64,000 bases of DNA from an uncultured delta proteobacterium (GCA_963815115.1 CAWFFN010000005.1:640001-704000); one strand, 5' to 3'; positions 7,177 through 19,757 are shown, counted from the stretch's first letter. Translations and numbers: made by a program. Notes: generated by a model not told the origin, from the letters alone.

Positions 7177-8409
7177 CTAGAAGGTGGCCTCGAGACCGAC
7201 CAGCGGGATCGGGCTGGTGTGAATGCCCTGCTCGGAGAGCGGCACGAGCACGTTGGCGAAGCCGAAGACGGTGTCGTTCCAGAGATTCAAGCGTCCACCG
7301 ATGGAGAGCGCGTAGTAGCTCGGGCGTACGCTGCTCAGGCCGAAGAGCGGAGCGGTGGGATGCGCGCAGCTCGGACTCGACACCGGACAGCCGTTGCGTG
7401 GATTGTAGCGCGGCAGGTCGAAGAAGCCGGCGGACGCGAAGCCGTGGAACGGCTCGCGCCCGAGGAAGCCGAACGACAGGGTCGCCCGATTGGCCAGCGC
7501 CACGTCGAAGCCCGCGCCGAAGCGGCCCTCGCTCACGTCCACGTCGTCGAGGACGAGATCGAGGCCGCCGTTCACGAAGGCCTGGACGGAGACCGGGCCC
7601 GCGATCGGGATGCGGTGGGTCGAAAGGTAGAGCAGCGGGGACAGCTCCCAGGAGCCGGTCCCCTGGAAGTTCTCCTCGTTGCCCGTCGGCATGCGCACCA
7701 CGAGCCCGAACGCCGCGGCGCCCCAGGGGTTCTTGAAGAAGCGGTACTTGCCGCGGAGCAGGAGGTCGCCGACGCCGTTGGCGTGCGAGATGTCCTGCTC
7801 GAACCTCGTCCCGCGCTGCTCCGGCGGGATCGGGACCAGGCTGTTGTCGCTCGGGTTGCGCTTGAACTCGCTTCCCATCGACCCGACGGAGAGCCGGCTG
7901 AAGAGCACCGGCAGCGCGAGGTTGACCTCGAGATCGTCCGTGATCCCGTACGTGCCCTGGAACGTCATCTCGTCGACGACGAGATCGACGGCGTAGCGGT
8001 CGAACCGGAAGAGCCGTCCGCCCCTGGAGGCGTTCTGGCCCGGGAGGATGATCGGCAGCCTGCTGTCGTGCAGCTGGTCGAGGTTCTCGTCCTGGACCGC
8101 GTCGACCGCGACGCGCTGGTAGCTCGCGCTGACGTTCCACTTCCCGCGTCCGATCGGCTGCGCGCGCTCGAGGTAGAGCTGCCCCAGCAGATCGGTCTCG
8201 CGCTCGAAGGACCCCGACGCCGGATCGAACGTGAAGGTGAGGCCGGGCGACGCGGAGATGACGGGAAGCGATCGGGCCACCGTCGCGGAGAGCGCCTGGC
8301 CGAGCGGCTTGGCGGGACCCCGGAACACGGACTCGAACGTCCGAGCCTCGAGCGGGGCGGCGCCGAGCGACGTCACGACGACGGCGGCGAGGAGCCGCCG
8401 CGCGGTCAC
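7177..8409 (-). CDS. Exported protein, probable outer-membrane beta-barrel (MetA-pathway phenol-degradation/'transporter'-like)
   Basis: GTG start at 8409 overlaps the upstream TGA. It has a signal peptide (RRLLAAVVVTSLGAAPLEA), the GVGDLLLRGKYRF...RMPTGNEENFQGTG motif, amphipathic strands and a C-terminal Phe (VGLEATF). Confidence 0.75.
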   Translation of the reverse strand: MTARRLLAAVVVTSLGAAPLEARTFESVFRGPAKPLGQALSATVARSLPVISASPGLTFTFDPASGSFERETDLLGQLYLERAQPIGRGKWNVSASYQRVAVDAVQDENLDQLHDSRLPIILPGQNASRGGRLFRFDRYAVDLVVDEMTFQGTYGITDDLEVNLALPVLFSRLSVGSMGSEFKRNPSDNSLVPIPPEQRGTRFEQDISHANGVGDLLLRGKYRFFKNPWGAAAFGLVVRMPTGNEENFQGTGSWELSPLLYLSTHRIPIAGPVSVQAFVNGGLDLVLDDVDVSEGRFGAGFDVALANRATLSFGFLGREPFHGFASAGFFDLPRYNPRNGCPVSSPSCAHPTAPLFGLSSVRPSYYALSIGGRLNLWNDTVFGFANVLVPLSEQGIHTSPIPLVGLEATF

Positions 8410-10610
8410 TGCGGTCCCCTCAAGCCGACGATCTTCCAGTCGCCGTCGGCTTCCTTGCGCAGCATCCCGGTGGTGGTGACCTCGAGGTGGATCTTCTTGC
8501 CGGTCTTCGCGTCGGTGAACTCGTCCCGGCGGGTGAAGGTGGCGGCGGCCTGGTCGCCCTGGCGGAGCACGTCGATGCCGGAGATCTGCACCTTCAGATC
8601 GGGTGCGATCTGGAAGTAGGTCTGCAGCTTCTGGCGCTGCGATTCGCTCATCTGCTCCTGCAGGGCGGCGATCTGGTCGACGTTCCTCGCCTCCAGGGCG
8701 GCGCCGTAGCGGTTGAGGAGGCTCCGGATGGCGGCGTCGTCGCCGTCCTCCTCGGCGGCCCAGGCCATCGACTGTCCGAACAGCCAGGAAGATCCGCCGG
8801 GAGCGGGCAGCGGCGGGGTCGCCGTGGGCTCGGACGGGCGGGGTCCCGCGCGCGGCTCGTCGGACGGTGTCGGGTCGCCAAGGGTCTCCGTGAAGAGGCG
8901 ATAGACGTCGAGCGTCTCGTTGCCGCGGCTGGCGACGATCTCCTTCAGCTGCTGCGGGGTCGGTGTGACGCCGAGTGCGCGCAGGGTACGTTCCGCGAGC
9001 TCGTTCTCGAGCTCCATCAGCTTCTCCGGCGGCCCCTGGACGTGCTCGGTCGCCACCAGCAGCCCCGTGGCCGCATCGATGACGTCCAGGTCGAGCGACA
9101 CCAGCTTGTCGTCGAGCGCGATGCTCGCCGAGAGCATCCTGTTCATGTGCAGCTGCGCCGCAGCCTCGATCTCGCTCAGCCCCTTCGTCTTCTGCAGGAA
9201 GTCGATCATCTGGCGCGAGAAGACCTGGATGGGCGGGAACTTGCCGAGAATGGTGATGAGCCCGTCGCGGGTGAGCTGCCGCATCCAGGCCGGAACGCCA
9301 GGCGTGCGGGCGCGCACCTCCATCACGCCGATGCGGATCGGCGTCTGCGGACCCGTCGAGGTGCGCCGGAACACGCCCACGCCGATCGCCGCGGCGAGCG
9401 CGACGAGCGCCACGATCGCGGCGAACCGGCCGGGGCGTCGTCGCGGTGCGACGACCGTGGCGGGCGCGGGCACGGGGGCACGGATGGGGGCGGGCGGCTC
9501 GACGGCAGGCGGTGCCGGTGCGGGCCGCTCGGGCGCTTGCGCCGGCGGCAGCTGCGGCAGCGGCACGACCGCGCCGCTGCGCAGCAGGGTCTGCCCTGGG
9601 TTGCCGTAGAGCACGAACGAGAGCCAGGTCGGCGAGCCGGCGCTCTCCGGCCTGCGGCGGCACTCGGCGCGCGCGTCGCGCAGCGCCTCGCCGATCGGGA
9701 CGGGCTCGAGCACGCGCCGGTAGAACGCCTCGGCGAGCGTCGCGGCGTGCCGGTCGCTCACGTCGGCGAGTGTCCCGACCACGGCAACCGCGCCGCCGAA
9801 GAGAAACGCGTAGGCCACGCTCGACACGGTCGCTTCCCAGGAGCCGCTCGCGGGTCCCTGGTGCTCGCGTGCGCTGGCGCACGCGTTCAAGAAGACGAGA
9901 GGCCGGCCGGCGACGTTGGGCTCGATCACCGCCGGGGACAGCGGGCGCGAGTCGGCGAGCAGGAGCGCCGGGCCGGTCTCCTCGCTGGTGATGACGTGGC
10001 CACAGTAGTGGATGAGATCGAAGCCCTCGCCGAGATACGCCGCGACGGTCTCGAAGCTCGCCAGCCGGTCGACGACGCACACGATGTCGGCGAACGGCTC
10101 GAGGGTCTCGCAGACGCCCTCGACCTCCTGGCGCACGAAGGGCAGGTCGCCGCGCGGATCCGAGCCGATGACCAGCGCCCGCGGCCGCGCGCGCATGCGC
10201 GGCGTGGCGCCGGCGAGCAGTGGGCGGTCGAGCACGAGGCGCTTGCCGAGCCCGTAGCGCAGCCCCCAGAACTCCTCCTCGTCGTGCAGGAGCTCCCACG
10301 GCATGCCGTAGAGCGACGTGCTGATCAGGAGCGGCCCCGAGACGCCCCGCAGCTTCTCGCGCAGGCGGGCCGGGACGAGCGTGCGGTAGATCACCTGGCC
10401 GCGCGCCTGCGCCTCCTGGGCGAACGTCTTGCTCTCGGGGCTGCGCAGCAGCGACTCGGCGCTCGCCAGGAGGGCGCGCGTGGTGACGTCGTCGACCGGA
10501 TGGCGGAACTCTTCCTGGAGCGGCTCGCCGAGGTCGCGCTCGGGGATGTCGAGCCGGTAGCGGAGCGCGCCCGCGGTCCGCTCGATGGAGAGCGTCGGGA
10601 CGAGCCTCAT
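8406..10610 (-). CDS. Membrane-anchored CHAT-domain (caspase-like) protease with periplasmic TolB_N/CsgG-like and SnoaL/NTF2-like domains
   Basis: MPWELL, DLPFVRQEV, catalytic LIHYCGH and VFLNACAS, AVVGTLADVSD and WLSFVLYGNP motifs. These are followed by a Pro-rich linker, a TM helix FAAIVALVALAAAIGVGVF and two soluble domains. Start MRLVPTLS at 10610. Confidence 0.88.
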   Translation of the reverse strand: MRLVPTLSIERTAGALRYRLDIPERDLGEPLQEEFRHPVDDVTTRALLASAESLLRSPESKTFAQEAQARGQVIYRTLVPARLREKLRGVSGPLLISTSLYGMPWELLHDEEEFWGLRYGLGKRLVLDRPLLAGATPRMRARPRALVIGSDPRGDLPFVRQEVEGVCETLEPFADIVCVVDRLASFETVAAYLGEGFDLIHYCGHVITSEETGPALLLADSRPLSPAVIEPNVAGRPLVFLNACASAREHQGPASGSWEATVSSVAYAFLFGGAVAVVGTLADVSDRHAATLAEAFYRRVLEPVPIGEALRDARAECRRRPESAGSPTWLSFVLYGNPGQTLLRSGAVVPLPQLPPAQAPERPAPAPPAVEPPAPIRAPVPAPATVVAPRRRPGRFAAIVALVALAAAIGVGVFRRTSTGPQTPIRIGVMEVRARTPGVPAWMRQLTRDGLITILGKFPPIQVFSRQMIDFLQKTKGLSEIEAAAQLHMNRMLSASIALDDKLVSLDLDVIDAATGLLVATEHVQGPPEKLMELENELAERTLRALGVTPTPQQLKEIVASRGNETLDVYRLFTETLGDPTPSDEPRAGPRPSEPTATPPLPAPGGSSWLFGQSMAWAAEEDGDDAAIRSLLNRYGAALEARNVDQIAALQEQMSESQRQKLQTYFQIAPDLKVQISGIDVLRQGDQAAATFTRRDEFTDAKTGKKIHLEVTTTGMLRKEADGDWKIVGLRGPQ

Positions 10611-10836
10611 CGAGCCCCGTACGGGCTGCGCTGGGAGCCGGCGTGCAACCCGCGGGCTACCCGGGCGCCGCACACGGACCCCTGACCCGGCACGCCACGA
10701 GGACGACGGGGTCTCAGGCCTGCTTCGTCGCGCACGGACGTCGTCTCGGTGGAGCGCACCTAGCATCGCGAGGCCCGTGGGTCCACTCCGGGTTCGTCGA
10801 GGGTCGCGCGGCGGCGAGGCCACGGTCTCTCGCCGG

Positions 10837-11724
10837 CTACGCGGCGAGCTCGACGTCGAACCGGAGCTTGAACCTTAGCGTTCGTTCCCGTTCGTGCAGC
10901 TCGAGCACGTACCGTCCGGGTCTCACGCCCTTCACGAGCACGGGGGCCGTTCCCCTGACCGTGTAGCGCGCGACCAGTTCGGCGCGGTCCGCTTCTACCA
11001 CCCGGAGCTGCACCGAGAGCTCGCTGGTCTCGGACCCGGAGACGCGGAGCGCAATCGCCACCAGCTCATCGCTCTGCGCCTCGAGTCGGAGTTCGACCCA
11101 GAGTCCCGAGTCCGCGAGCGCGAACTGAACCTCCTGGCCGAGCCCCGGTGCGGTGGCCTCGGAGGAGTCGGCATCGAGGCCCCGCATCGCGCCCACAGGA
11201 ACGGGCACCGCGCCGACCAGGAAGCCCTCCGGGACCTCGGTGAAAACCGCGGCGGCGCGTCCGACCCGCACGACGGCGTGTCCGACCACCTCGCGCACCT
11301 TCGCACCGAATCGGTTCGCCGTCTCGCGCCACCGTGGCGCGGGAGCCAGGAGCGGCTCGAGTTCCCCGCGCGCCGCGGCGCGCTCGACGGCGATCAGCTC
11401 GACCAGCCGCTCCCGGCAAGCGATGCACCAGCCCAGGTGACGGGCGAGCGTAGGCTCCCGGTTGCGGATGTCGGCCGCAGCGAGGTCGGTGACAAGGTAG
11501 AGCCGATCCTGCACTGCGTCGCAGCCGAAAAGGGACTGCATCCGGTCCGACTCTGCGGGGAGCTCCCCGGTCGCCAGCTCGTAGACCGTCCGCAGGATGG
11601 ACCAGCAGTCGGAGCACCAGGCGGCGTGCTCCTCGGCGGCCCGCCGATTGGCGGCGGTCTCCGGCTCGCCCGGCTGAGCGGGCGGCGACGCGAGCAGAGT
11701 GGCGATGCAATCCTCGTGGTTCAC
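10837..11724 (-). CDS. Putative soluble anti-sigma factor with two zinc-finger (HxxxCxxC) motifs and a C-terminal beta-sandwich-like domain
   Basis: HAAWCSDC and HLGWCIAC motifs, position directly downstream of an ECF sigma gene, and no TM helix. GTG 11724 is preferred over ATG 11736 because the promoter -10 box abuts 11736. Confidence 0.75.
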   Translation of the reverse strand: MNHEDCIATLLASPPAQPGEPETAANRRAAEEHAAWCSDCWSILRTVYELATGELPAESDRMQSLFGCDAVQDRLYLVTDLAAADIRNREPTLARHLGWCIACRERLVELIAVERAAARGELEPLLAPAPRWRETANRFGAKVREVVGHAVVRVGRAAAVFTEVPEGFLVGAVPVPVGAMRGLDADSSEATAPGLGQEVQFALADSGLWVELRLEAQSDELVAIALRVSGSETSELSVQLRVVEADRAELVARYTVRGTAPVLVKGVRPGRYVLELHERERTLRFKLRFDVELAA

Positions 11725-11737
11725 GGCTGCAACCATC

Positions 11738-11765
11738 GGGACGAAAGTCCGCAGTGGGATGTGTC
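11738..11765 (-). promoter_or_regulatory. Putative ECF promoter GACACA-N16-CGTCCC upstream of the anti-sigma gene
   Basis: Minus strand reads GACACA tcccactgcggacttt CGTCCC. The same motif occurs at 12425 and 16875. Confidence 0.7.
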
Positions 11766-11773
11766 GCCCCCCG

Positions 11774-12397
11774 TCACTCGGGGTCCTCGAAAGCCTGGCG
11801 AAGGGCCTTGCGAATGCGTTTGAGCTGTCCAGCCACGCTGTCCCTGGTGAGTCCTTGACGCGCCGCGATCTCCTTTTCGGGCAGGTCGTCCACGAACTTG
11901 AGGCGGGCCACCTCGAGTCGCGACACGGCGCGCGCCACGATGGCGAGCCGCTCCCGGTGGGCCGCGAGGTCCTCGGGGCCGGGGGCGTCGTCCGGAAGGG
12001 AGTCCCGCAGCGCGTGCTCGGGGTCGTCCTCGGGCATGCCGACGTAGCCCCGCCGGCGCGAATGGCGGCGACCGTCGCGGGCCAGGTCCAGCACGGTGTG
12101 GACGAAGAGGGAGCGGGCCCAGGCTTCGAGCCGGTCCGCGTCGCGCAGCGTGTCCAGCTTCTCGCACGAGATCAGCTTCAGAAGAGCCGTCTGGACGGCG
12201 TCCTCGAGGTCGTCCTGGAGCTGGGGGTAGCGCCGGCGGCCGAGCGCGAGCCAGTGGCGCCGGAAGCCCTCCAACACGTTGCCGAGGCGTGGATCGGGCG
12301 TCCCCGACTGTGCAGAGCGCAAGATGCCGAGGATGGCTTCCGGCGGCCCAGTCAGCACTTCATCGTTCCCCTTCGAGATTGACCGAAGCCCCCCCAC
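11774..12397 (-). CDS. ECF-type RNA polymerase sigma-70 factor
   Basis: Region 2 DLEDAVQTALLKL...LEAWARSLFVHTVLDLAR and region 4 HTH LPEKEIAARQGLTRDSVAGQLKRIRKAL. The start may be the GTG at 12358. Confidence 0.9.
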   Translation of the reverse strand: MGGLRSISKGNDEVLTGPPEAILGILRSAQSGTPDPRLGNVLEGFRRHWLALGRRRYPQLQDDLEDAVQTALLKLISCEKLDTLRDADRLEAWARSLFVHTVLDLARDGRRHSRRRGYVGMPEDDPEHALRDSLPDDAPGPEDLAAHRERLAIVARAVSRLEVARLKFVDDLPEKEIAARQGLTRDSVAGQLKRIRKALRQAFEDPE

Positions 12398-12424
12398 CCG
12401 GTCAAGGTAGCGAACAGGGAGGAT

Positions 12425-12452
12425 GACACACTGCTACGCGGAGGGGCGTCCC
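12425..12452 (+). promoter_or_regulatory. Putative ECF promoter GACACA-N16-CGTCCC upstream of the FG-GAP gene
   Basis: GACACA ctgctacgcggagggg CGTCCC. The spacer shares GCGGA at the same offset as the 11765 copy. Confidence 0.7.
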
Positions 12453-12588
12453 TCTCAGCAGACCGCGCAGATGCGAGGCTCAGATGTCGAGGGGGAAAGC
12501 GGCTCGAGTGCGAGTCGAGCTGCGAATGGCCTTTTTCCGGGACTCTGGAGAAGGTAACCTTTCCGATCCCGCCCAAAGATCCCTCATC

Positions 12589-15500
12589 ATGCGGCGTCAT
12601 TCTCGGTCGATTGTCTTCGCTTCGCTGGTCATTCTTCTCCTGACTGGGCTGGCGCGCGCCGACGACATCACCTGCGGTGAAACGCTCTCGCGCGTCATCG
12701 ACGACCGCGGCGTCGATGACGAGCTCACCTTCACGGCGCTGCAGGGCGAGGTCGTCAGCGTCACCGTCGCCGCGGCCGCGGGTCAGCCGTTCAAGTTCGA
12801 TCCGCGGTGGGAGATCACCGATTCCGACGGTCACAAGGTGCCGCTCGCGAACGACGACACGCGTTGCGCCTCCACCGAGCATCAGTGCGAGACCCTCCCG
12901 TTTGCGGCCAGCGACACCTATACGCTCTCCATCCGGGACGACAATCACAACGCGGCCGGCACCTACAACGTCACCCTCGAGGCCGTGTCCGCCACGGCGA
13001 ACGGCGCGCTCAACGGGCCGCCGGCGCAGGTTCCCGCGTGCGCGCGCCTCAATCAGAGCGGCAAGCCCGATGGCACGCAGCTGATCGAACGCGGGCAGCT
13101 CGTCGGTGGCGCCATCGACGTCTTCGGCGAGACCGACACCTTCACCTTCGCCGCCTCGGCCGGCGACGTGGTGACCATCGGGCTCGCGACCGGCGGCTCG
13201 CCCGCCGATTCCTTCGACCCGGTCTGGCGGCTCTTCGATCCCGCCGGCGCGGTCGTCGGTGGAGGGGACCAGGGCATCGTCTACTGCCCCGACACGTGCG
13301 ACCGGGGTCCGCTGCCCGCGGCCGGCATCTACACCATCAAGGTCTACGATTTCGGCTACGACGGCGCCGGCGACTACACGCTGTTCCTGCAGAACGCCGC
13401 GGTCACCACGACGACCACGATCACCACCACCACCGCCGCGCCCGCGACCACCACCACGACGCTGCTGCCGGCGGGCACGGCTCCGATCTACGAGCTGGCG
13501 AAGACGCTCCGGCGTCTCGGTTCGGCGGAGGAGCTCGGTGCGGCGCTCGCCGCGACCCCGGACCGGCTGATCATCGGCTCGCCCGCGGACCAGACGAGCG
13601 GTCCCGCCGCCGGCGCGGTGTTCGTCGTGAGCCTCTTCGGCACTCCAGGCGATCCGAACTACGGCCAGCTGCTGGCAACGCTGGTCAAGCCGAGCGGGCC
13701 GAGCGCGAAGGACGACCGCTTCGGCGCCGCGCTGGCGCTCATCGATCAGAGCATCCTCGTCGGCGCGCCGGGTGACGACACGAAGGGCGAGGACGCCGGC
13801 GCGGCATACGTCTTCGGAGCCGACCTCCGGCCGGCGCTGCGCGACCCGCTCACCTCACCGCGGGGCGCGGCTGGCGGCCGCTTCGGTGCCGCCGTCGCGG
13901 TGGTCGATGGCCAGGCGCTCGTCGGCGCTCCCGGTGAGGACGGCGTGGGACGGGTCTATCTCTTCGATCCCGCCGGAACGCCCATCCAGAATTTCGATGC
14001 CGCCGCTGCCGTCGCCGGCGCAATCGACGTGCAGAACGCCAATGCCGCCACGGCACGCGCCGGGGATCGGTTCGGGTCGGCGATCGCCGCGTCGGGTGAC
14101 GAGATCGTCTTCGGCGCGCCCGCCGACGTCAACAACCCCGGACGCGTGTTCCTCTTCAACAGCCGGACGGGCAAGTGGCAGGTCATTGCCAGCCCGAGCC
14201 CGTCGCCGGGCGACGGCTTCGGCTCGGCCGTGACGTTCGCGGGCAACGCGCAGATCGTCATCGGCGCGCCGGGGGTCGAGAAGATCTTCGTGGTCGGGCA
14301 GCAGCGCGGCAAGCCGGCGCAGGACGTCGGGCTCGCCCCGAGCGGCGGGCTCGGAGCCGCGGTCGCCGCGTTCGGTTCGAATCAGCTCCTCGTCGGCGCG
14401 CCGACGGACGGCGCCGCCACGGGCGGAGCGGCGTTGCAGGTCCGGCTCGACAACAACCCCTCCAAGAGCGAGATCCTGACCAAGTTCGTCAAGAAGCTTC
14501 CCGAGGCAGGCGATGGGTACGGCACGGCGGTGGTCGCGGCAGGCGCTCGCATCGCGATCGGTTCGCCGGGCGACAACGCCGGCACCGTCAGCGGGGGCGC
14601 CGTGTACGTCTACGGCCCGACCAGCACCACGCCGGAGGCGGTGTTCCGCAAGCGTCTCACCCCGTCGGGATTCGGCAAGGCGCTGAGCGCCAATGCCACC
14701 GACGTGGTCGTGGGAGCGCCGGAGGATGTCGAGGGCCACGGCGCCGTCTACCGCTTCGATACGCGCATCCCGTGCACGCCGAACTGTCCGCTGCTCGGAT
14801 CGGCGGTTACGGGCCCAGTCGCCGGCTCGCGCTTCGGCCAGACCGTCGCGGTGCTCGACGGGACGACGCTGGTCGGCGCACCGTCCCAGGACGGCGCGCA
14901 GGGCCAGGAGAGCGGTGCCGCGTACCTGGTGAACCCGACGCAGGTCGGTCCGCTGCTGGCGGATCCCGAGCCCTTCCCCGGCGATCAGTTCGGCTTCGCG
15001 GTCGCCGCGGCCGACAACGACCTCCTGGTTGGCGCGCCGCTTCTCGGCAGCTCCGACACCGGCGCGGTCTTCGTCTTCGAGCAGAGCGACGGCTTCCCCC
15101 GTCGCGTGACGTACCGCAAGCCCACGCCCACCGCGGGCGATTTCTTCGGCGCCGCGATCGCGGTCGACGGGGACACCGTCGCCGTCGGCGCGCCGTTCGA
15201 CAACGCGGCCGCACAGAATGGCGGCGCCGTCTACCTCTTCCGTCGCTCCACCGCGGAGCTGCTGCGGACGGACCCGCTGGTGAGCAACGCCCCGGTCGCG
15301 CGCGAGCTGTTCGGCTCCGCACTGGCGATCAGCCCCCAGTGGATCGTCGTCGGCGCTCCGCTCCAGGACGGCAGCAACGACGCGCCCGGCAAGGCCTACG
15401 TCTTCGACCGCGCCACGTTCGCGCTGGTGCGCAGCCTCGCCAGCCCGAGTCCCCACCCCGGGGATCACTTCGGCGCTTCGGTGGCGATCGTCGGCGGCTA

Positions 15501-16452
15501 CGTCCTGGTCGGTGCCCCGTATGACGACTCCGGCGCCACGCAGACGGGCGCGGCCTACCTCTTCGAGCCCGCCTCCGGGAACCTGGCGCAGGTCTTCAAC
15601 AACCCCGCGCAGAACGCCTTCGACCACTTCGGCCAGGCGGTCGTCGCCGGGCCAGCGGGTCCGGTGATCGGCGCTCCCGGTCCGTCGCGCGTCTACGTCT
15701 ACCAGCCCGCCTCGGGTGGCCTCACGGTCCGCAATGCGCATGGCATCACCGCCGCCGCCTCCGGGCCGCGGTGCGGCAACGGCATCGTCGAGGGCGCCGA
15801 GCAGTGCGACGACGGCAACTCGATCGATACCGACGATTGCCGCAACGACTGCACGCTCCAGAAGTGCTGCACCATCGACCCGCTCGCAGCCGACCGTTGC
15901 AACGACTTCGACCCCTGCACGGACGACGTGCTCGATGCCAGCGGCGGCTGCAGGAACGTGGACAACGGCACCTGCTGCACCTCGGACGCGAGCTGCACCG
16001 GCAACGGCACCTGCCGCCTGTGCGCAGGATGCTCGCTGTTCCCTTGGGACTGCTGCGACCAGGGCGCCGCCTGCATCCTCAAGTCATCGGAGTGCTCCGA
16101 TAAGACGTGCTTCGATGCGGCGACCTGCGAGTGTGAGGGAGGCCTCACCTGCAGCGACGGCGCCGTGCCCACGGAGATCTCGAGTCTCTTCGTGCCGGCC
16201 TGCGACATGCTGCGCCTGGAGCAGGACGGCAGCTCGGACAGGACGCCGCTCCAGGTCGCGCGGCTCGCCGCGAAGGAAGCCCGCAAGATGCTCCGCAAGG
16301 CGATGCACCGCACGCGCGAGCAGCTCTCCCGGCACGTCATCTCCAAGGGCTGCCGCAAGGAGATCATGACCACGCTTCGCCAGGTGCGACGCTCCATCCC
16401 GGAGGGCCAGCACATGCGGAAGTGCGTGGCTCATGAGCAGCCGGGAGCCTGA
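12589..16452 (+). CDS. Large secreted protein: two PPC-like domains, Thr-rich linker, many FG-GAP (integrin-alpha-like) repeats, Cys-rich (DUF4215/myxobacterial-type) repeats and a basic helical C-terminus
   Basis: Signal peptide MRRHSRSIVFASLVILLLTGLARA, a dozen or more FG..A....VGAP...GAVYxF repeats, and CGNGIVEGAEQCDDGN...CRNDC and CNDFDPCTDDVLD repeats. Confidence 0.9.
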   Translation: MRRHSRSIVFASLVILLLTGLARADDITCGETLSRVIDDRGVDDELTFTALQGEVVSVTVAAAAGQPFKFDPRWEITDSDGHKVPLANDDTRCASTEHQCETLPFAASDTYTLSIRDDNHNAAGTYNVTLEAVSATANGALNGPPAQVPACARLNQSGKPDGTQLIERGQLVGGAIDVFGETDTFTFAASAGDVVTIGLATGGSPADSFDPVWRLFDPAGAVVGGGDQGIVYCPDTCDRGPLPAAGIYTIKVYDFGYDGAGDYTLFLQNAAVTTTTTITTTTAAPATTTTTLLPAGTAPIYELAKTLRRLGSAEELGAALAATPDRLIIGSPADQTSGPAAGAVFVVSLFGTPGDPNYGQLLATLVKPSGPSAKDDRFGAALALIDQSILVGAPGDDTKGEDAGAAYVFGADLRPALRDPLTSPRGAAGGRFGAAVAVVDGQALVGAPGEDGVGRVYLFDPAGTPIQNFDAAAAVAGAIDVQNANAATARAGDRFGSAIAASGDEIVFGAPADVNNPGRVFLFNSRTGKWQVIASPSPSPGDGFGSAVTFAGNAQIVIGAPGVEKIFVVGQQRGKPAQDVGLAPSGGLGAAVAAFGSNQLLVGAPTDGAATGGAALQVRLDNNPSKSEILTKFVKKLPEAGDGYGTAVVAAGARIAIGSPGDNAGTVSGGAVYVYGPTSTTPEAVFRKRLTPSGFGKALSANATDVVVGAPEDVEGHGAVYRFDTRIPCTPNCPLLGSAVTGPVAGSRFGQTVAVLDGTTLVGAPSQDGAQGQESGAAYLVNPTQVGPLLADPEPFPGDQFGFAVAAADNDLLVGAPLLGSSDTGAVFVFEQSDGFPRRVTYRKPTPTAGDFFGAAIAVDGDTVAVGAPFDNAAAQNGGAVYLFRRSTAELLRTDPLVSNAPVARELFGSALAISPQWIVVGAPLQDGSNDAPGKAYVFDRATFALVRSLASPSPHPGDHFGASVAIVGGYVLVGAPYDDSGATQTGAAYLFEPASGNLAQVFNNPAQNAFDHFGQAVVAGPAGPVIGAPGPSRVYVYQPASGGLTVRNAHGITAAASGPRCGNGIVEGAEQCDDGNSIDTDDCRNDCTLQKCCTIDPLAADRCNDFDPCTDDVLDASGGCRNVDNGTCCTSDASCTGNGTCRLCAGCSLFPWDCCDQGAACILKSSECSDKTCFDAATCECEGGLTCSDGAVPTEISSLFVPACDMLRLEQDGSSDRTPLQVARLAAKEARKMLRKAMHRTREQLSRHVISKGCRKEIMTTLRQVRRSIPEGQHMRKCVAHEQPGA
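13401..13460 (+). repeat. ACC/ACG codon run encoding a Thr-rich linker
   Basis: Encodes VTTTTTITTTTAAPATTTTT. Confidence 0.8.
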
Positions 16453-16504
16453 GGGGCGGCCGGCCCCGTGGGGCGCCGGCGCCCGAGGGTCGCTCCGAAG
16501 CCGC

Positions 16505-16825
16505 TCAGTCGAACTCGTCGTCGCGGGCCGCGGGCCGCACGTACCGGCCTCTGGCGACCAGCCGGCGGAAGGCTTCCAGGACGGCCGCCTCCCGGCTCAT
16601 CTCCTCGACGCGGCCGTCCTCGTCCTCGAGCCGCACCAGCACCCCGGGCAGCTCGCGCACGTTACAGCCCACCTGCTCGAGAAAGCCGCGCGCGATCTGG
16701 AGGTCGTCGGCGGACGCCTTGATCCGGCCGGCGGCCAGCCAGGCGTCGGCGATGCGCACGGCGGCCAGCTCGAATCGGCACTCGACCGGCCGGGGCACGT
16801 TGCGCAGAACGTCGTAGTGATCCAA
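16505..16825 (-). CDS. Hypothetical ~106-aa cytoplasmic protein
   Basis: TTG start at 16825 with a GGAGGGGG RBS 7 nt upstream, GC3-biased codons, and the third copy of the ECF-like motif upstream. Confidence 0.7.
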   Translation of the reverse strand: MDHYDVLRNVPRPVECRFELAAVRIADAWLAAGRIKASADDLQIARGFLEQVGCNVRELPGVLVRLEDEDGRVEEMSREAAVLEAFRRLVARGRYVRPAARDDEFD

Positions 16826-16847
16826 CCGTGTGCCCCCTCCGCGGGTC

Positions 16848-16875
16848 AAGACGGGGGCAGCGCGGTGGATGTGTC
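16848..16875 (-). promoter_or_regulatory. Putative ECF promoter GACACA-N16-CGTCTT
   Basis: Minus strand reads GACACA tccaccgcgctgcccc CGTCTT, within the ~50-bp gap after korB. Confidence 0.65.
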
Positions 16876-16878
16876 AGG

Positions 16879-17880
16879 TCAGCGTACGACCCAGGTCTCG
16901 CCGCGCCGCAGCAGGCTGCCGAGATCGGCGGGCGAGCGCTCCCTGGCCGCCGCGATCTGCGCGTTGGCGGCGTCCTCGTAAGTCGGGCGCGCGACGGCGC
17001 GCAGGACGCCGACGGGGGTGGGAAACTCCGGCGGCCCGAGACGGGACAGCAGCGCGGCCATCGTCGAATCTCGCTCGTCGTGAACCACCAGGTCGGCCTC
17101 CGTGATACCGCCGCCGAGCTCGACCACCTCGGGGAGCAGGCCCCGCAACCGGATGCCCCGGTTGCGGTCCCGGCCGAAGATCAGCGGCCGGCCATGCTCG
17201 AGGACGAGCGTGCGGTCGGCCTTGCGGGCCTTGTCCGTGAGATCCTCGAAGGCGCCGTCGTTGAAGACGTTGCAGTTCTGGAGGACCTCGACGAAGGAGG
17301 CGCCCCGGTGCGCGTGTGCGCGCCGCAGGACCTCCGTCAGATGCTTGGCCTCGACGTCCACGCTGCGGGCGACGAACGATGCCCCCGCCCCCAGGACCAG
17401 CGCCAGCGGATCGAAGGGCTGATCGACGGAGCCGAACGGGGTCGATTTCGTCGTCTTCCCCACCTCCGAGGTGGGCGAGTACTGGCCCTTGGTCAGGCCG
17501 TAGATGCGGTTGTTGAACACCAGGATGCAGAGGTCGAGGTTGCGGCGAAGGGCGTGAATCAGATGGTTGCCGCCAATCGAGAGTGCATCGCCGTCGCCCG
17601 TCACGACCCACACCGAGAGCTCCGGCCTCGATATCTTGAGCCCGGTCGCGAGGGCCGGGGCTCGGCCATGGATGGAATGGAAGCCGTAGGTGTTGACGTA
17701 GTACGGGAAGCGGCTCGAGCAGCCGATCCCGGAGACGAAGACGAAGTTCTCCCGCGGTACGCCGAGCTCGGGCAGGAGCTTCTGCACCTGGGCGAGGATG
17801 GCGTAGTCACCGCAGCCCGGGCACCAGCGCACGTCCTGGTCGGAGATGAAATCCTTCCGGCTGAGCGGCGCGCTGCTCAC
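16879..17880 (-). CDS. korB: 2-oxoacid:ferredoxin oxidoreductase beta subunit
   Basis: WCPGCGD, SGIGCSSR, TPP-binding GDGDALSIGGNH...NN and YGLTKGQYSPT motifs. Confidence 0.95.
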   Translation of the reverse strand: MSSAPLSRKDFISDQDVRWCPGCGDYAILAQVQKLLPELGVPRENFVFVSGIGCSSRFPYYVNTYGFHSIHGRAPALATGLKISRPELSVWVVTGDGDALSIGGNHLIHALRRNLDLCILVFNNRIYGLTKGQYSPTSEVGKTTKSTPFGSVDQPFDPLALVLGAGASFVARSVDVEAKHLTEVLRRAHAHRGASFVEVLQNCNVFNDGAFEDLTDKARKADRTLVLEHGRPLIFGRDRNRGIRLRGLLPEVVELGGGITEADLVVHDERDSTMAALLSRLGPPEFPTPVGVLRAVARPTYEDAANAQIAAARERSPADLGSLLRRGETWVVR

Positions 17881-19757
17881 GACAGCACCTCCTGCTCGTC
17901 GTCGCCCGCGAGCAGTCGCAGGCTCCTGGCGGTGAGCTCACTCACCTTGAACGGACGTCCCTGTATCTTCTGATAGCCCACCGCCGGCGTCAGATACTCG
18001 GCCCTGAGTACCCGCACGAGCTGACCCAGGTTGATCTCCGGAACCAGGACGTGCCGCGACCGCGCGAGTCGGTCGCCGAGATCGGCTGGCAGGGGATTCA
18101 GATGGCGCAGGTGGAGATGCGCCGCCCGATGGCCGGCTGCCTGGAGATCGGTCACCGTCTGGCGGATCGCACCGAAGGTGCTTCCCCAGCCGACGACCAG
18201 CAGGTCCGGGTCGGCCGCACCGAACACCTCGGTGGGCGGGATCTCGCGGGTGATGCCGGCGATCTTGCGCGCGCGCAGCCGCACCATCTGCTCGTGGTTG
18301 AGCGGCGCATAGCTGACGTTCCCGGTGACGGCCTCCTTCGCCAGGCCTCCGATGCGGTGCTCGAGGCCGGCGGTGCCGGGCCGTACCCACGGCCTCGACA
18401 GCGTCTCCTGGTCGCGCAGGTAGGGGAAGAACCCCTGCGGGTCGGTGCGGAAGCTGACCGGGATGTCGGGCAGACCGCTCGGGTCGGGGATGAGCCACGG
18501 CTCGGCCCCGTTGGCGAGGTAGCCGTCGCTCAGCACGATCACCGGCGTCATGTACTTGATCGCCAGCCGCACCGCCTCGAAGGCGACGGCGAAGCAGTCT
18601 GCCGGCGTGCAGGGAGCGAGGATGGGGACCGGCGCCTCGCCGTGCCGCCCGTAGAGCGCCATCAGCAGATCGGCCTGTTCGGTCTTGGTCGGCATGCCGG
18701 TCGATGGTCCGGCGCGCTGGATGTCGACGACGATCAGCGGCAGCTCGACGGCGAGCGCGAGTCCGATGGTCTCGGCCTTGAGGTCCATGCCGGGGCCGCT
18801 CGTCGTGGTGATGCCGATCGCGCCGCCGAACGACGCGCCCAGCGCGGCGCCGACGCCGGCGATCTCGTCCTCGGCCTGGAAGGTGTAGACGTTGAACTGC
18901 TTGAGCGCGGCCAGCTCGTGGAGCACGTCGCTGGCCGGGGTGATCGGGTAGCTGCCGAGGAAGAGCGGCAGCTTCGCCTTGTGGCCGGCAGCCACGAGTC
19001 CGAGGGCGGTCGCGGTGTTCCCGGTGACGTTGCGGTACATGCCGGGAGGGATGGCGGCCGGGCGAACCTCGTACGATACGGCGAGCATCTCGGTGGTCTC
19101 GGCGTAGTTCCATCCGGCGCGCAGCGCGCGCCGGTTCGCCTCGACCAGCTTGGGGTTCTTCTTGAACTTGTCCTCGACCCAGGCCTCGGTCGGCTCGATC
19201 GGGCGGTGATAGAGCCAGGAGGTGAGACCGAGACAGAAGAAGTTGCGGCAGCGGAACTCCTCGCGAGCCGAGAGCCCGAGGCCCTTCAACGAACCGGTCG
19301 TGAGCTTCGTGATGTCGACCGGAAAGAGCTGCCAGCGCGCCAGCGAGTCGTCGTCGAGCGGATTGCGCTCGTAGCCGGCCTTGCGCAGGTTGGCGTCGCT
19401 GAAGGCTTCGCGGTCGACGATGAGAACGCCGCCGGGCCGCAGGTCGTCGAGATTCATCTTCAACGCCGCGGGATTCATGGCGACGAGGATGTCGACGTCA
19501 TCGCCCGGCGTGAAGATGCGCTCGGCCGCGAAGTGGAGCTGGAAGGCGCTCACGCCGGCCAGGGTGCCGGCGGGCGCGCGAATCTCGGCGGGGAAGTCGG
19601 GCAGGGTGGCGAGATCGTTTCCAGCCAGTGCCGACTCGGTGGTGAACTGCAGGCCCGTCACCTGCATGCCGTCACCGGAGTCTCCGGCGAAGCGAATGAC
19701 GACGCCCTCGCGGGTTTCCAGGCGCTTCGCCGGGCTCGACGAGCCTTCGGACATCAC
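17877..19757 (-). CDS. korA: 2-oxoacid:acceptor oxidoreductase alpha subunit (gamma-alpha fusion)
   Basis: FAGDSGDGMQ, YPITPAS, QAEDEIA, TSGPG and QRAGPSTGMPTKTEQ motifs. Confidence 0.95.
   Translation of the reverse strand: MMSEGSSSPAKRLETREGVVIRFAGDSGDGMQVTGLQFTTESALAGNDLATLPDFPAEIRAPAGTLAGVSAFQLHFAAERIFTPGDDVDILVAMNPAALKMNLDDLRPGGVLIVDREAFSDANLRKAGYERNPLDDDSLARWQLFPVDITKLTTGSLKGLGLSAREEFRCRNFFCLGLTSWLYHRPIEPTEAWVEDKFKKNPKLVEANRRALRAGWNYAETTEMLAVSYEVRPAAIPPGMYRNVTGNTATALGLVAAGHKAKLPLFLGSYPITPASDVLHELAALKQFNVYTFQAEDEIAGVGAALGASFGGAIGITTTSGPGMDLKAETIGLALAVELPLIVVDIQRAGPSTGMPTKTEQADLLMALYGRHGEAPVPILAPCTPADCFAVAFEAVRLAIKYMTPVIVLSDGYLANGAEPWLIPDPSGLPDIPVSFRTDPQGFFPYLRDQETLSRPWVRPGTAGLEHRIGGLAKEAVTGNVSYAPLNHEQMVRLRARKIAGITREIPPTEVFGAADPDLLVVGWGSTFGAIRQTVTDLQAAGHRAAHLHLRHLNPLPADLGDRLARSRHVLVPEINLGQLVRVLRAEYLTPAVGYQKIQGRPFKVSELTARSLRLLAGDDEQEVLS

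Follow-up and report, generated by a model that had tools for sequence, protein, structure and literature searches.

A conserved GACACA-N16-CGTC element and its likely use by an ECF sigma factor in Candidatus Binatia

The locus described here lies in a 64,000-nucleotide (nt) stretch of DNA, GCA_963815115.1 CAWFFN010000005.1:640001-704000, which is referred to below as the window and is numbered from its first letter. The host is an uncultured Candidatus Binatia; some related records are labelled delta proteobacterium. The locus encodes a sigma factor of the extracytoplasmic function (ECF) type and an anti-sigma factor within a module of conserved order: small gene, FG-GAP secreted protein, sigma, anti-sigma, and membrane CHAT protease. 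Three copies of a bipartite element, GACACA-N16-CGTC, lie among these genes, and an earlier note on this DNA had proposed that they define the regulon of the local sigma factor. The features are as follows:

11740..11765 (-): promoter-like site 1; GACACA 11765-11760, N16, CGTC 11743-11740; exact match
12425..12450 (+): promoter-like site 2; exact match, oriented to the FG-GAP gene
16850..16875 (-): promoter-like site 3; exact match, 24 nt 5' of the small-gene start TTG 16825
11774..12358 (-): ECF-type sigma gene; 194 amino acids (aa), start GTG 12358
10837..11724 (-): gene for a soluble anti-sigma factor; 295 aa, conserved start GTG 11724
12589..16452 (+): gene for a secreted FG-GAP / cysteine-rich-repeat protein; 1287 aa, start ATG 12589; putative target of site 2
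16505..16825 (-): gene for a small protein of no known family; 106 aa, start TTG 16825; putative target of site 3
8406..10610 (-): membrane CHAT (caspase-like) protease gene; 734 aa

Three copies of the element

An exact pattern search of both strands of the 64-kb window found the three copies where they had been described, with equal spacing, and no others. When the window was shuffled 100 times with dinucleotide composition preserved, the mean number of copies was 0.19 and the maximum was 2, such that none of the 100 shuffles contained three. The gene map bears out the claim that the copies are intergenic and correctly oriented: all three sites are non-coding, and each is directed at a gene. 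Site 1 sits between the sigma stop (11774) and the anti-sigma start (GTG 11724), 15 nt from the latter. With only 49 nt in this gap, and site 1 within it, presumably both read-through from the sigma gene and transcription from site 1 contribute to the production of anti-sigma. Site 2 lies in the divergent sigma/FG-GAP intergenic region, 138 nt 5' of the signal-peptide ATG (12589), and is back-to-back with the sigma gene's own −35 box, from which it is 19 bp apart. Site 3 is located between the stop of a 2-oxoacid:ferredoxin oxidoreductase beta gene (16879) and the small-gene start, with a GGAGG ribosome-binding site between it and TTG 16825.

Finer points of the earlier description were also reproduced: the trailing bases are CGTCCC, CGTCCC and CGTCTT, GCGGA is common to two spacers, and GACACATCC is common to two sites. 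The GCGGA word is not kept in orthologues and is probably a coincidence. No repeat reaches past the boxes at the three sites. The note's statement that no copy precedes the sigma gene itself holds as well, as no match was found upstream of that gene in sense orientation (locus L001) even when one mismatch was allowed.

Conservation and distribution of the element

Conservation was assessed in 24 other genomes of the same family and in 36 genomes from other families of the class. Orthologues of the sigma factor were found in 12 of the 24 family genomes, representing 7 genera, and none was found at E <= 1e-10 among the 36 genomes from other families; the module appears to belong to one family of Candidatus Binatia. 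The gap between sigma and anti-sigma contains an exact motif in 11 of the 12 orthologous genome loci, with GCCACA in the twelfth, and 10 of 11 assessable loci have an exact motif divergently upstream of sigma. Synteny extends to the small gene, which lies 4-6 kb from sigma and has an exact motif directly upstream in 10 genomes, namely the host genome (G000) and G001, G003, G004, G005, G006, G013, G014, G018 and G023. In two further genomes, G009 and G021, a small helix-turn-helix gene stands before the small gene, and the motif precedes that gene instead. The spacer is 16 nt long at every conserved genome site, and the spacer sequences have diverged. The motif is absent upstream of the small-gene homologues of 7 sigma-less genomes and of 9 non-syntenic paralogues.

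The element stood out directly in three alignments built with no use of the motif. In the alignment of sequence upstream of sigma (A2, read in sigma orientation), the GACG columns are invariant and TGTGTC is nearly invariant, corresponding to site 2. The alignment of the sigma/anti-sigma gap (A6) has invariant CACA and CGTC columns at site 1, and that of the small-gene upstream region (A7) has invariant GACACA and CGTC columns at site 3. The motif boxes are the sole invariant non-coding columns in these alignments, the TTGAC box of sigma being nearly invariant, and spacers and flanks vary. Judged by these alignments, all three sites are phylogenetic footprints.

A wider sample was provided by 70 metagenome contigs, near-duplicates included. 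After the sigma stop, 42 of 66 assessable loci have an exact site and 11 more have one with a single mismatch; divergently upstream of sigma, an exact site is found in 30 of 50 loci. The one-mismatch loci form a clade (L105-L116, and L010 of G009) that has GCCACA for GACACA before the anti-sigma, with CGTC and the 16-nt spacing kept; its retention of CACA suggests that CACA is the core of the −35 box. The stop of sigma and the start of anti-sigma overlap (ATGA) in a distant subfamily of 51-54% identity (L149, L151, L153), which has no internal promoter. Here copies of GACACA-N16-CGTC, some of them paired back-to-back, are found ~230 nt upstream of sigma, on the far side of a TTGAC-N17/18-CATGAT box, and this layout suggests evolutionary rearrangement of the wiring.

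Comparison of 58 non-redundant sites refined the motif to Y-GACACA-t-N15-CGTC-h. The base 5' of GACACA is C or T in all 58 (41 C, 17 T), a feature that was not searched for. The base 3' of GACACA is T-rich (T in 27/58), the base 3' of CGTC is G at only 2 of the 58 sites, and the spacer carries no information. The departure of GACACA from an AAC-type −35 box, to which the earlier note had drawn attention, thus recurs as YGACACA in 58/58 sites. The invariant CGTC and 16-nt spacer of the conserved sites, together with their position 9-140 nt before start codons, correspond to ECF-type promoter geometry.

The host genome (6.89 Mb, 70% G+C) contains 12 exact copies of the motif. Ten of these lie in 146-nt windows lacking codon periodicity, compared with 19.5% of the 9206 hits to 720 composition-matched permuted motifs, and among permuted motifs with at least 8 hits only 2 have a higher non-coding share than the real motif. 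When GACACA was paired with the other eleven 4-mers, 10 of 37 copies were in non-coding-like DNA. Some permuted pairs are themselves found mostly in such DNA, including AACGAC-N16-CTGC (7/8), AAACCG-N16-CCGT (7/8), AGACCA-N16-TCGC (8/10) and CAAGAC-N16-GCTC (8/11); other ECF sigmas may use these as promoters, or they may belong to repeats. Across the family, the 13 sigma-bearing genomes have 138 copies in ~71 Mb (~1.9 per Mb) and the 12 sigma-less genomes have 48 copies in ~50 Mb (~0.95 per Mb), genome sizes being rounded. A control motif read backwards gave 27 and 14 copies, respectively. Presence and absence of the module among related genomes are whole-module patterns rather than independent events.

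One copy outside the window, C5:1631144 (+), lies ~170 nt before a gene for a membrane GT2 glycosyltransferase. This gene's orthologues in G001 and G003 are preceded on the same strand, at ~230-280 nt, by exact copies whose spacers are unrelated, and three other genera yielded no orthologue. The glycosyltransferase is therefore a candidate fourth target, conserved within the genus (three species). The proposal that three copies define the regulon of the local sigma factor is supported with respect to the sigma, to which conservation, footprints and co-occurrence link the motif, and falls short with respect to the regulon, which appears larger than three. Other copies gave less: a LuxR-type regulator gene with a motif copy had no orthologues in the 5 genomes searched, a copy at a metallophosphoesterase gene was matched by a one-mismatch site in only 1 of 4 orthologous loci, and conservation of a site at a Flp pilin gene was not found.

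The sigma gene has a different upstream element:

12376..12405 (-): promoter-like box of housekeeping type before the sigma gene; TTGACC 12405-12400, N18, CAATCT 12381-12376

The sequence CCTTGAC is nearly invariant 36-44 nt 5' of the invariant GTG (A2), with CAnnnT ~17-18 nt further on. Of 45 loci, 31 have TTGAC followed by CAnnnT within 110 nt upstream of sigma, counting L093, where it is found only at the start codon, and loci without TTGAC mostly have TTGCC or TTGCG at the same place. A strict scan of 10500-17000 for the sigma-70 consensus returned no promoters; it missed the TTGAC box of sigma because the −10 box reads CAATCT. These comparisons suggest a conserved promoter of the TTGAC type for the sigma gene, which no ECF motif precedes. 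They favour the earlier suggestion of feedback through the anti-sigma without positive autoregulation, given that the conserved TTGAC-N~18-CAnnnT box stands before sigma and the ECF motif is found only after the sigma stop.

Proteins of the module

The sigma factor matches TIGR02937 (sigma70-ECF) with 56.2 bits, above the cut-off of 42.9, over residues 42-189 of 194. The Pfam models for Sigma70_r2 (22.4, threshold 24) and r4_2 (22.3, threshold 25.7) score just below threshold. The protein has regions 2 and 4 only, which places it in the ECF (group 4) superfamily, and its closest solved relative is CnrH (E 7e-7). Its start codon was set by an invariant GTGC and by the length of 194 aa, the commonest among relatives. 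The protein ends directly after region 4 without a C-terminal extension, and no ECF41/SigJ model is among its 21 NCBIfam hits. The host genome encodes two orphan paralogues of this sigma, at C9:1494475-1495053 (+) (L014; 77% identity) and C7:684960-685526 (+) (L018; 70% identity). Both are in surroundings of lower G+C content; neither has an anti-sigma or CHAT gene next to it or a motif in its vicinity. With the local sigma they share a nearly identical region-4 helix (alignment A1), and they may read the same boxes.

The anti-sigma factor has no predicted transmembrane segment and no sequence match in Pfam, NCBIfam or the PDB. Its N-terminus, modelled as helical, carries H3/H33/C37/C40 and C68/H96/C100/C103, two tandem sets of zinc-type ligands that do not vary in any of 9 sequences (A3). 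Both sets show HxxxCxxC preceded by a Cys or His ligand, as in the ZAS (class I) motif, and no hit to the zf-HC2 profile was obtained even at E <= 10. A structural model with a predicted local distance difference test score (pLDDT) of 63 has helical residues 1-118, a disordered linker at 122-195 and a C-terminal beta-sandwich, and a fold search with it gave only generic beta-sandwich matches. When sigma was modelled with anti-sigma residues 1-135, the complex scored 0.77 against 0.20 for the best control, although sigma/anti-sigma complexes have already been solved and the score may reflect likeness to them. Of 157 solved complexes 116 reached this mark, as did 2 of 215 mismatched pairs; the counts hold only roughly, because alignments made for this analysis were used. 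The prediction runs agreed in at least 74% of contacts, with a partner pLDDT of at least 80, and both zinc-ligand stretches touch sigma in the predicted complex. The soluble anti-sigma is thus predicted to bind sigma.

The CHAT protease gene follows the anti-sigma gene in all 8 loci that extend far enough. The encoded protein matches the Pfam CHAT family (3.5e-27), has a weak SnoaL_3 hit, and contains the His/Cys dyad motifs HYCGH and VFLNACAS. The CHAT domain is N-terminal, a single transmembrane helix spans residues 396-414, no signal peptide is present, and the outer part has a SnoaL-like end; the CHAT domain is, on this topology, presumably cytoplasmic. The outer half (residues ~427-731) has three paralogues in the genome, at C9:1147039, C12:575014 and C7:1120284. 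A further element precedes the gene:

10757..10785 (-): conserved block between the anti-sigma and CHAT genes; TGGACC, N17, TGC-TAGGTG; conserved across genera (A4)

Within 10700-10792 (-), between the anti-sigma stop and the CHAT start, this block is followed by a conserved leader with GACGTC. To us the block resembles an extended −10 housekeeping promoter, and CHAT may have its own promoter. An Rfam search over 8000-18000 gave nothing relevant and no family for the block.

The FG-GAP protein has a signal peptide and matches FG-GAP_2 (7.8e-75) and DUF4215, and the same architecture is divergent from sigma in G001-type, G005, G013 and G002 loci. Its gene has a long leader, in which ACCGCGCA(G/C)ATGCGAGG at 12462-12478 (+), just 3' of site 2, is kept within the genus; the leader of the window also has a 27-codon open frame from ATG 12471. 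The small protein has homologues in 21 of 25 family genomes and no Pfam or NCBIfam hit. Its model (pLDDT 82) consists of a helix followed by an alpha-beta3-alpha unit, and a fold search returned nothing at E <= 0.001, the best weak matches being dsRBD/HicA-like alpha-beta3-alpha folds. The presence of selenocysteine in small-gene paralogues (L031, L034, L035, L037, L040, L045, L047) was considered and rejected, the in-frame TGA being their own stop codon, past which the match runs. These paralogues have ~89 aa compared with 106 aa for the query, and Cys positions are not conserved. Separately, an exact motif precedes a ~70-aa XRE-type helix-turn-helix gene in three genomes (G013 L058:13415 (-), G009 L036:286 (+), and G021 L048:2182 (-)). 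Two helix-turn-helix homologues in the host genome (C7:970683, C12:368936) have no motif within 200 nt with 2 mismatches allowed.

Interpretation and comparison with known systems

We consider it likely that the three sites are promoters read by the local ECF sigma, and probably also by the two orphan paralogues, with sigma itself made from a housekeeping promoter and feedback running through the anti-sigma. In this model YGACACA would serve as −35 box and CGTC as −10 box, with the 16-nt spacer between them fixed, and we infer that transcripts start ~6-8 nt past CGTC. Sigma and anti-sigma would be co-transcribed from the housekeeping-type TTGACC-N18-CAATCT. Once released by the soluble zinc-type anti-sigma, sigma would activate its outputs, namely the small protein, the FG-GAP protein and, within this genus, the membrane GT2 glycosyltransferase. 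The internal promoter at site 1 would supply extra anti-sigma, such that the response would shut itself off, a negative feedback without positive autoregulation.

Several observations weigh against this model. A search of sequencing runs listed no RNA run for this stretch, and each DNA run that matched shared under 0.2 of its words. Most ECF promoters share AAC in the −35 box, which is absent here. G002 retains sigma and lacks exact sites before the FG-GAP and small genes. Among metagenome loci, 24 of 66 have no exact site after the sigma stop and 20 of 50 have none divergently upstream; these are mostly members of the GCCACA clade, orphan-like copies and the distant subfamily. CGTC stands at a fixed 14-15 nt from the anti-sigma GTG (A6), which would leave the site 1 transcript with a leader of ~7-9 nt and at most a partial ribosome-binding site. 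A copy upstream of a gene for a soluble histidine kinase (C5:1161633), a candidate for a conserved target, was rejected because none of 5 orthologous loci keeps the site. The orphan paralogues could be the true readers. Lastly, 12 copies is an ordinary number for a genome of this kind: the permuted motifs have a mean of 12.8, and 38% have at least 12.

The last point bears on whether the three copies could be a functionless chance cluster or remnants of a repeat. The count equals that expected by chance, and clusters of at least three copies within 6 kb were found for 10 of 720 permuted motifs, the real motif among the 10, so that clustering alone is only moderately unusual. A genome-wide test of intergenic enrichment, as called for in the earlier note, thus gave no excess in number and favoured the motif in location. 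Copy number and clustering are not decisive; the location in non-coding-like DNA is. The alignments already contradict an origin by chance, as the two boxes persist from genus to genus at three distinct positions although spacers and flanks have diverged, and no repeat extends beyond the boxes. We regard this explanation as barely credible. An operator for a DNA-binding regulator, such as a small XRE-type protein, would account for the lack of the usual AAC in GACACA and for the copy that precedes a small helix-turn-helix gene in G013, G009 and G021. The element is, however, asymmetric and strictly oriented to the downstream gene, and its fixed 16-nt gap, with CGTC 9-140 nt before start codons, has the geometry of a promoter rather than of a dyad operator. 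It also differs from the proven ECF41 promoter at only one of seven −35 positions when Y is T, and the helix-turn-helix homologues in the host genome lack the motif; an operator is accordingly most improbable.

A closer competitor is that the boxes are promoters of another sigma, either an orphan paralogue or an unrelated ECF, and that the neighbouring sigma has other targets. The paralogues, lacking a neighbouring anti-sigma or CHAT gene and having almost the same region-4 helix, are consistent with this. However, wherever an orthologous locus occurs, the motif accompanies the local sigma/anti-sigma pair, also in genomes where no paralogue was detected, and the paralogue loci themselves lack a copy. 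An unrelated sigma would leave unexplained a site between sigma and anti-sigma in at least 7 genera. Recognition by another sigma in place of the local one is therefore unlikely, and the local ECF sigma is the preferred reader of the three sites.

The locus is most likely a bacterial switch of a common kind, unusual in its recognition sequence and its wiring. Candidatus Binatia are abundant uncultured soil bacteria, and the locus would offer a complete and testable signalling unit, with a divergent ECF sigma, a promoter code, outputs and a circuit with negative feedback only. Our literature search found nothing on Binatia sigma factors and no paper joining ECF, FG-GAP, anti-sigma and genomic context. 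Predicting a promoter and regulon in this way is routine in the comparative genomics of ECFs. New insight could come from the conserved association of a membrane CHAT protease with a soluble anti-sigma of the tandem-zinc kind. Among CRISPR proteins, the type III-E protease Csx29 reportedly acts on a partner of an ECF-like sigma. A tentative reading, which we hold to be doubtful as a whole, is that the locus encodes a split and topologically inverted relative of DdvA-type and craspase-type signalling, in which the CHAT protease frees sigma by cleaving the anti-sigma. The outer, SnoaL-ending part would sense an outside signal and activate the cytoplasmic CHAT domain, which would cut the tandem-zinc anti-sigma, probably in the disordered linker 122-195. 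Sigma would then turn on a cell-surface programme comprising the adhesin-like FG-GAP protein and the GT2 polysaccharide synthase, and anti-sigma re-made from the internal promoter would end the pulse. If true, this would be a new route of ECF sigma release: intracellular cleavage of a non-membrane anti-sigma by a dedicated caspase-like site-1 protease.

Parallels with the Myxococcus xanthus DdvS/DdvA system include an ECF sigma and a zinc-type anti-sigma domain linked to a CHAT caspase-like module, few local target promoters, an N16 spacer and a CGT −10 box (PMC11506125, PMC6061681). Differences are that in DdvA the TPR-CHAT part is periplasmic and fused to the anti-sigma, whereas CHAT here is presumed cytoplasmic and belongs to a separate membrane protein, and that DdvS promoters read GTAA-n16-CGT and its own operon is autoregulated. 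The DdvA architecture, one polypeptide with an anti-sigma domain, a transmembrane helix and a periplasmic TPR-CHAT, is not found at this locus, where the anti-sigma has no transmembrane segment and CHAT is a separate 734-aa protein. Actinobacterial ECF54 genes also lie near genes for CHAT-domain proteins (supplement of PMC7826278); the group is confined to Actinobacteria, has no predicted anti-sigma, and has a predicted promoter of GTATCAG / CTCC. The same work states that ECFs usually autoregulate and that non-autoregulated groups have no predicted motif. ACACA and GACAC have no occurrences in the examined part of its supplement, and a matching group could lie in the remainder.

The closest promoter is that of ECF41, for which TGTCACA-n16-CGTC has been proven (Wecke et al. 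2012, PMC3426412). Both elements have a 7-mer −35 box without AAC that ends in CACA, a 16-nt spacer and CGTC, and YGACACA equals TGTCACA at 6 of 7 positions when Y is T, the difference being the third −35 base (A here, T in ECF41). The local sigma is nonetheless not an ECF41 member, as its 194 aa lack the defining C-terminal SnoaL-like extension (~100 aa), and it has an anti-sigma, which ECF41 sigmas lack. YGACACA-N16-CGTC would be a second AAC-less −35 type beside ECF41, and may serve as an orthogonal part. The sequence comparisons point to a new ECF group with an ECF41-like −35 box lacking AAC, although the classification supplement was compared in part and a matching group may have been missed.

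The proposed wiring has a precedent in Corynebacterium glutamicum, where a SigH promoter for rshA only lies behind the housekeeping promoters of sigH (Busche et al. 2012, PMC3489674). That system differs in phylum, ECF group and promoter sequence. The anti-sigma here has two zinc-type motifs and a beta-sandwich domain, a CHAT protease gene follows it, and the system described here is deduced from sequence. In C. glutamicum, housekeeping promoters for sigma and anti-sigma are combined with an extra sigma-dependent promoter for the anti-sigma alone, an arrangement that the sequence pattern at this locus would fit. Both systems have a soluble zinc-type (HxxxCxxC) anti-sigma, and the feedback role proposed for the sigH-rshA arrangement is rapid shut-off (PMC3489674).

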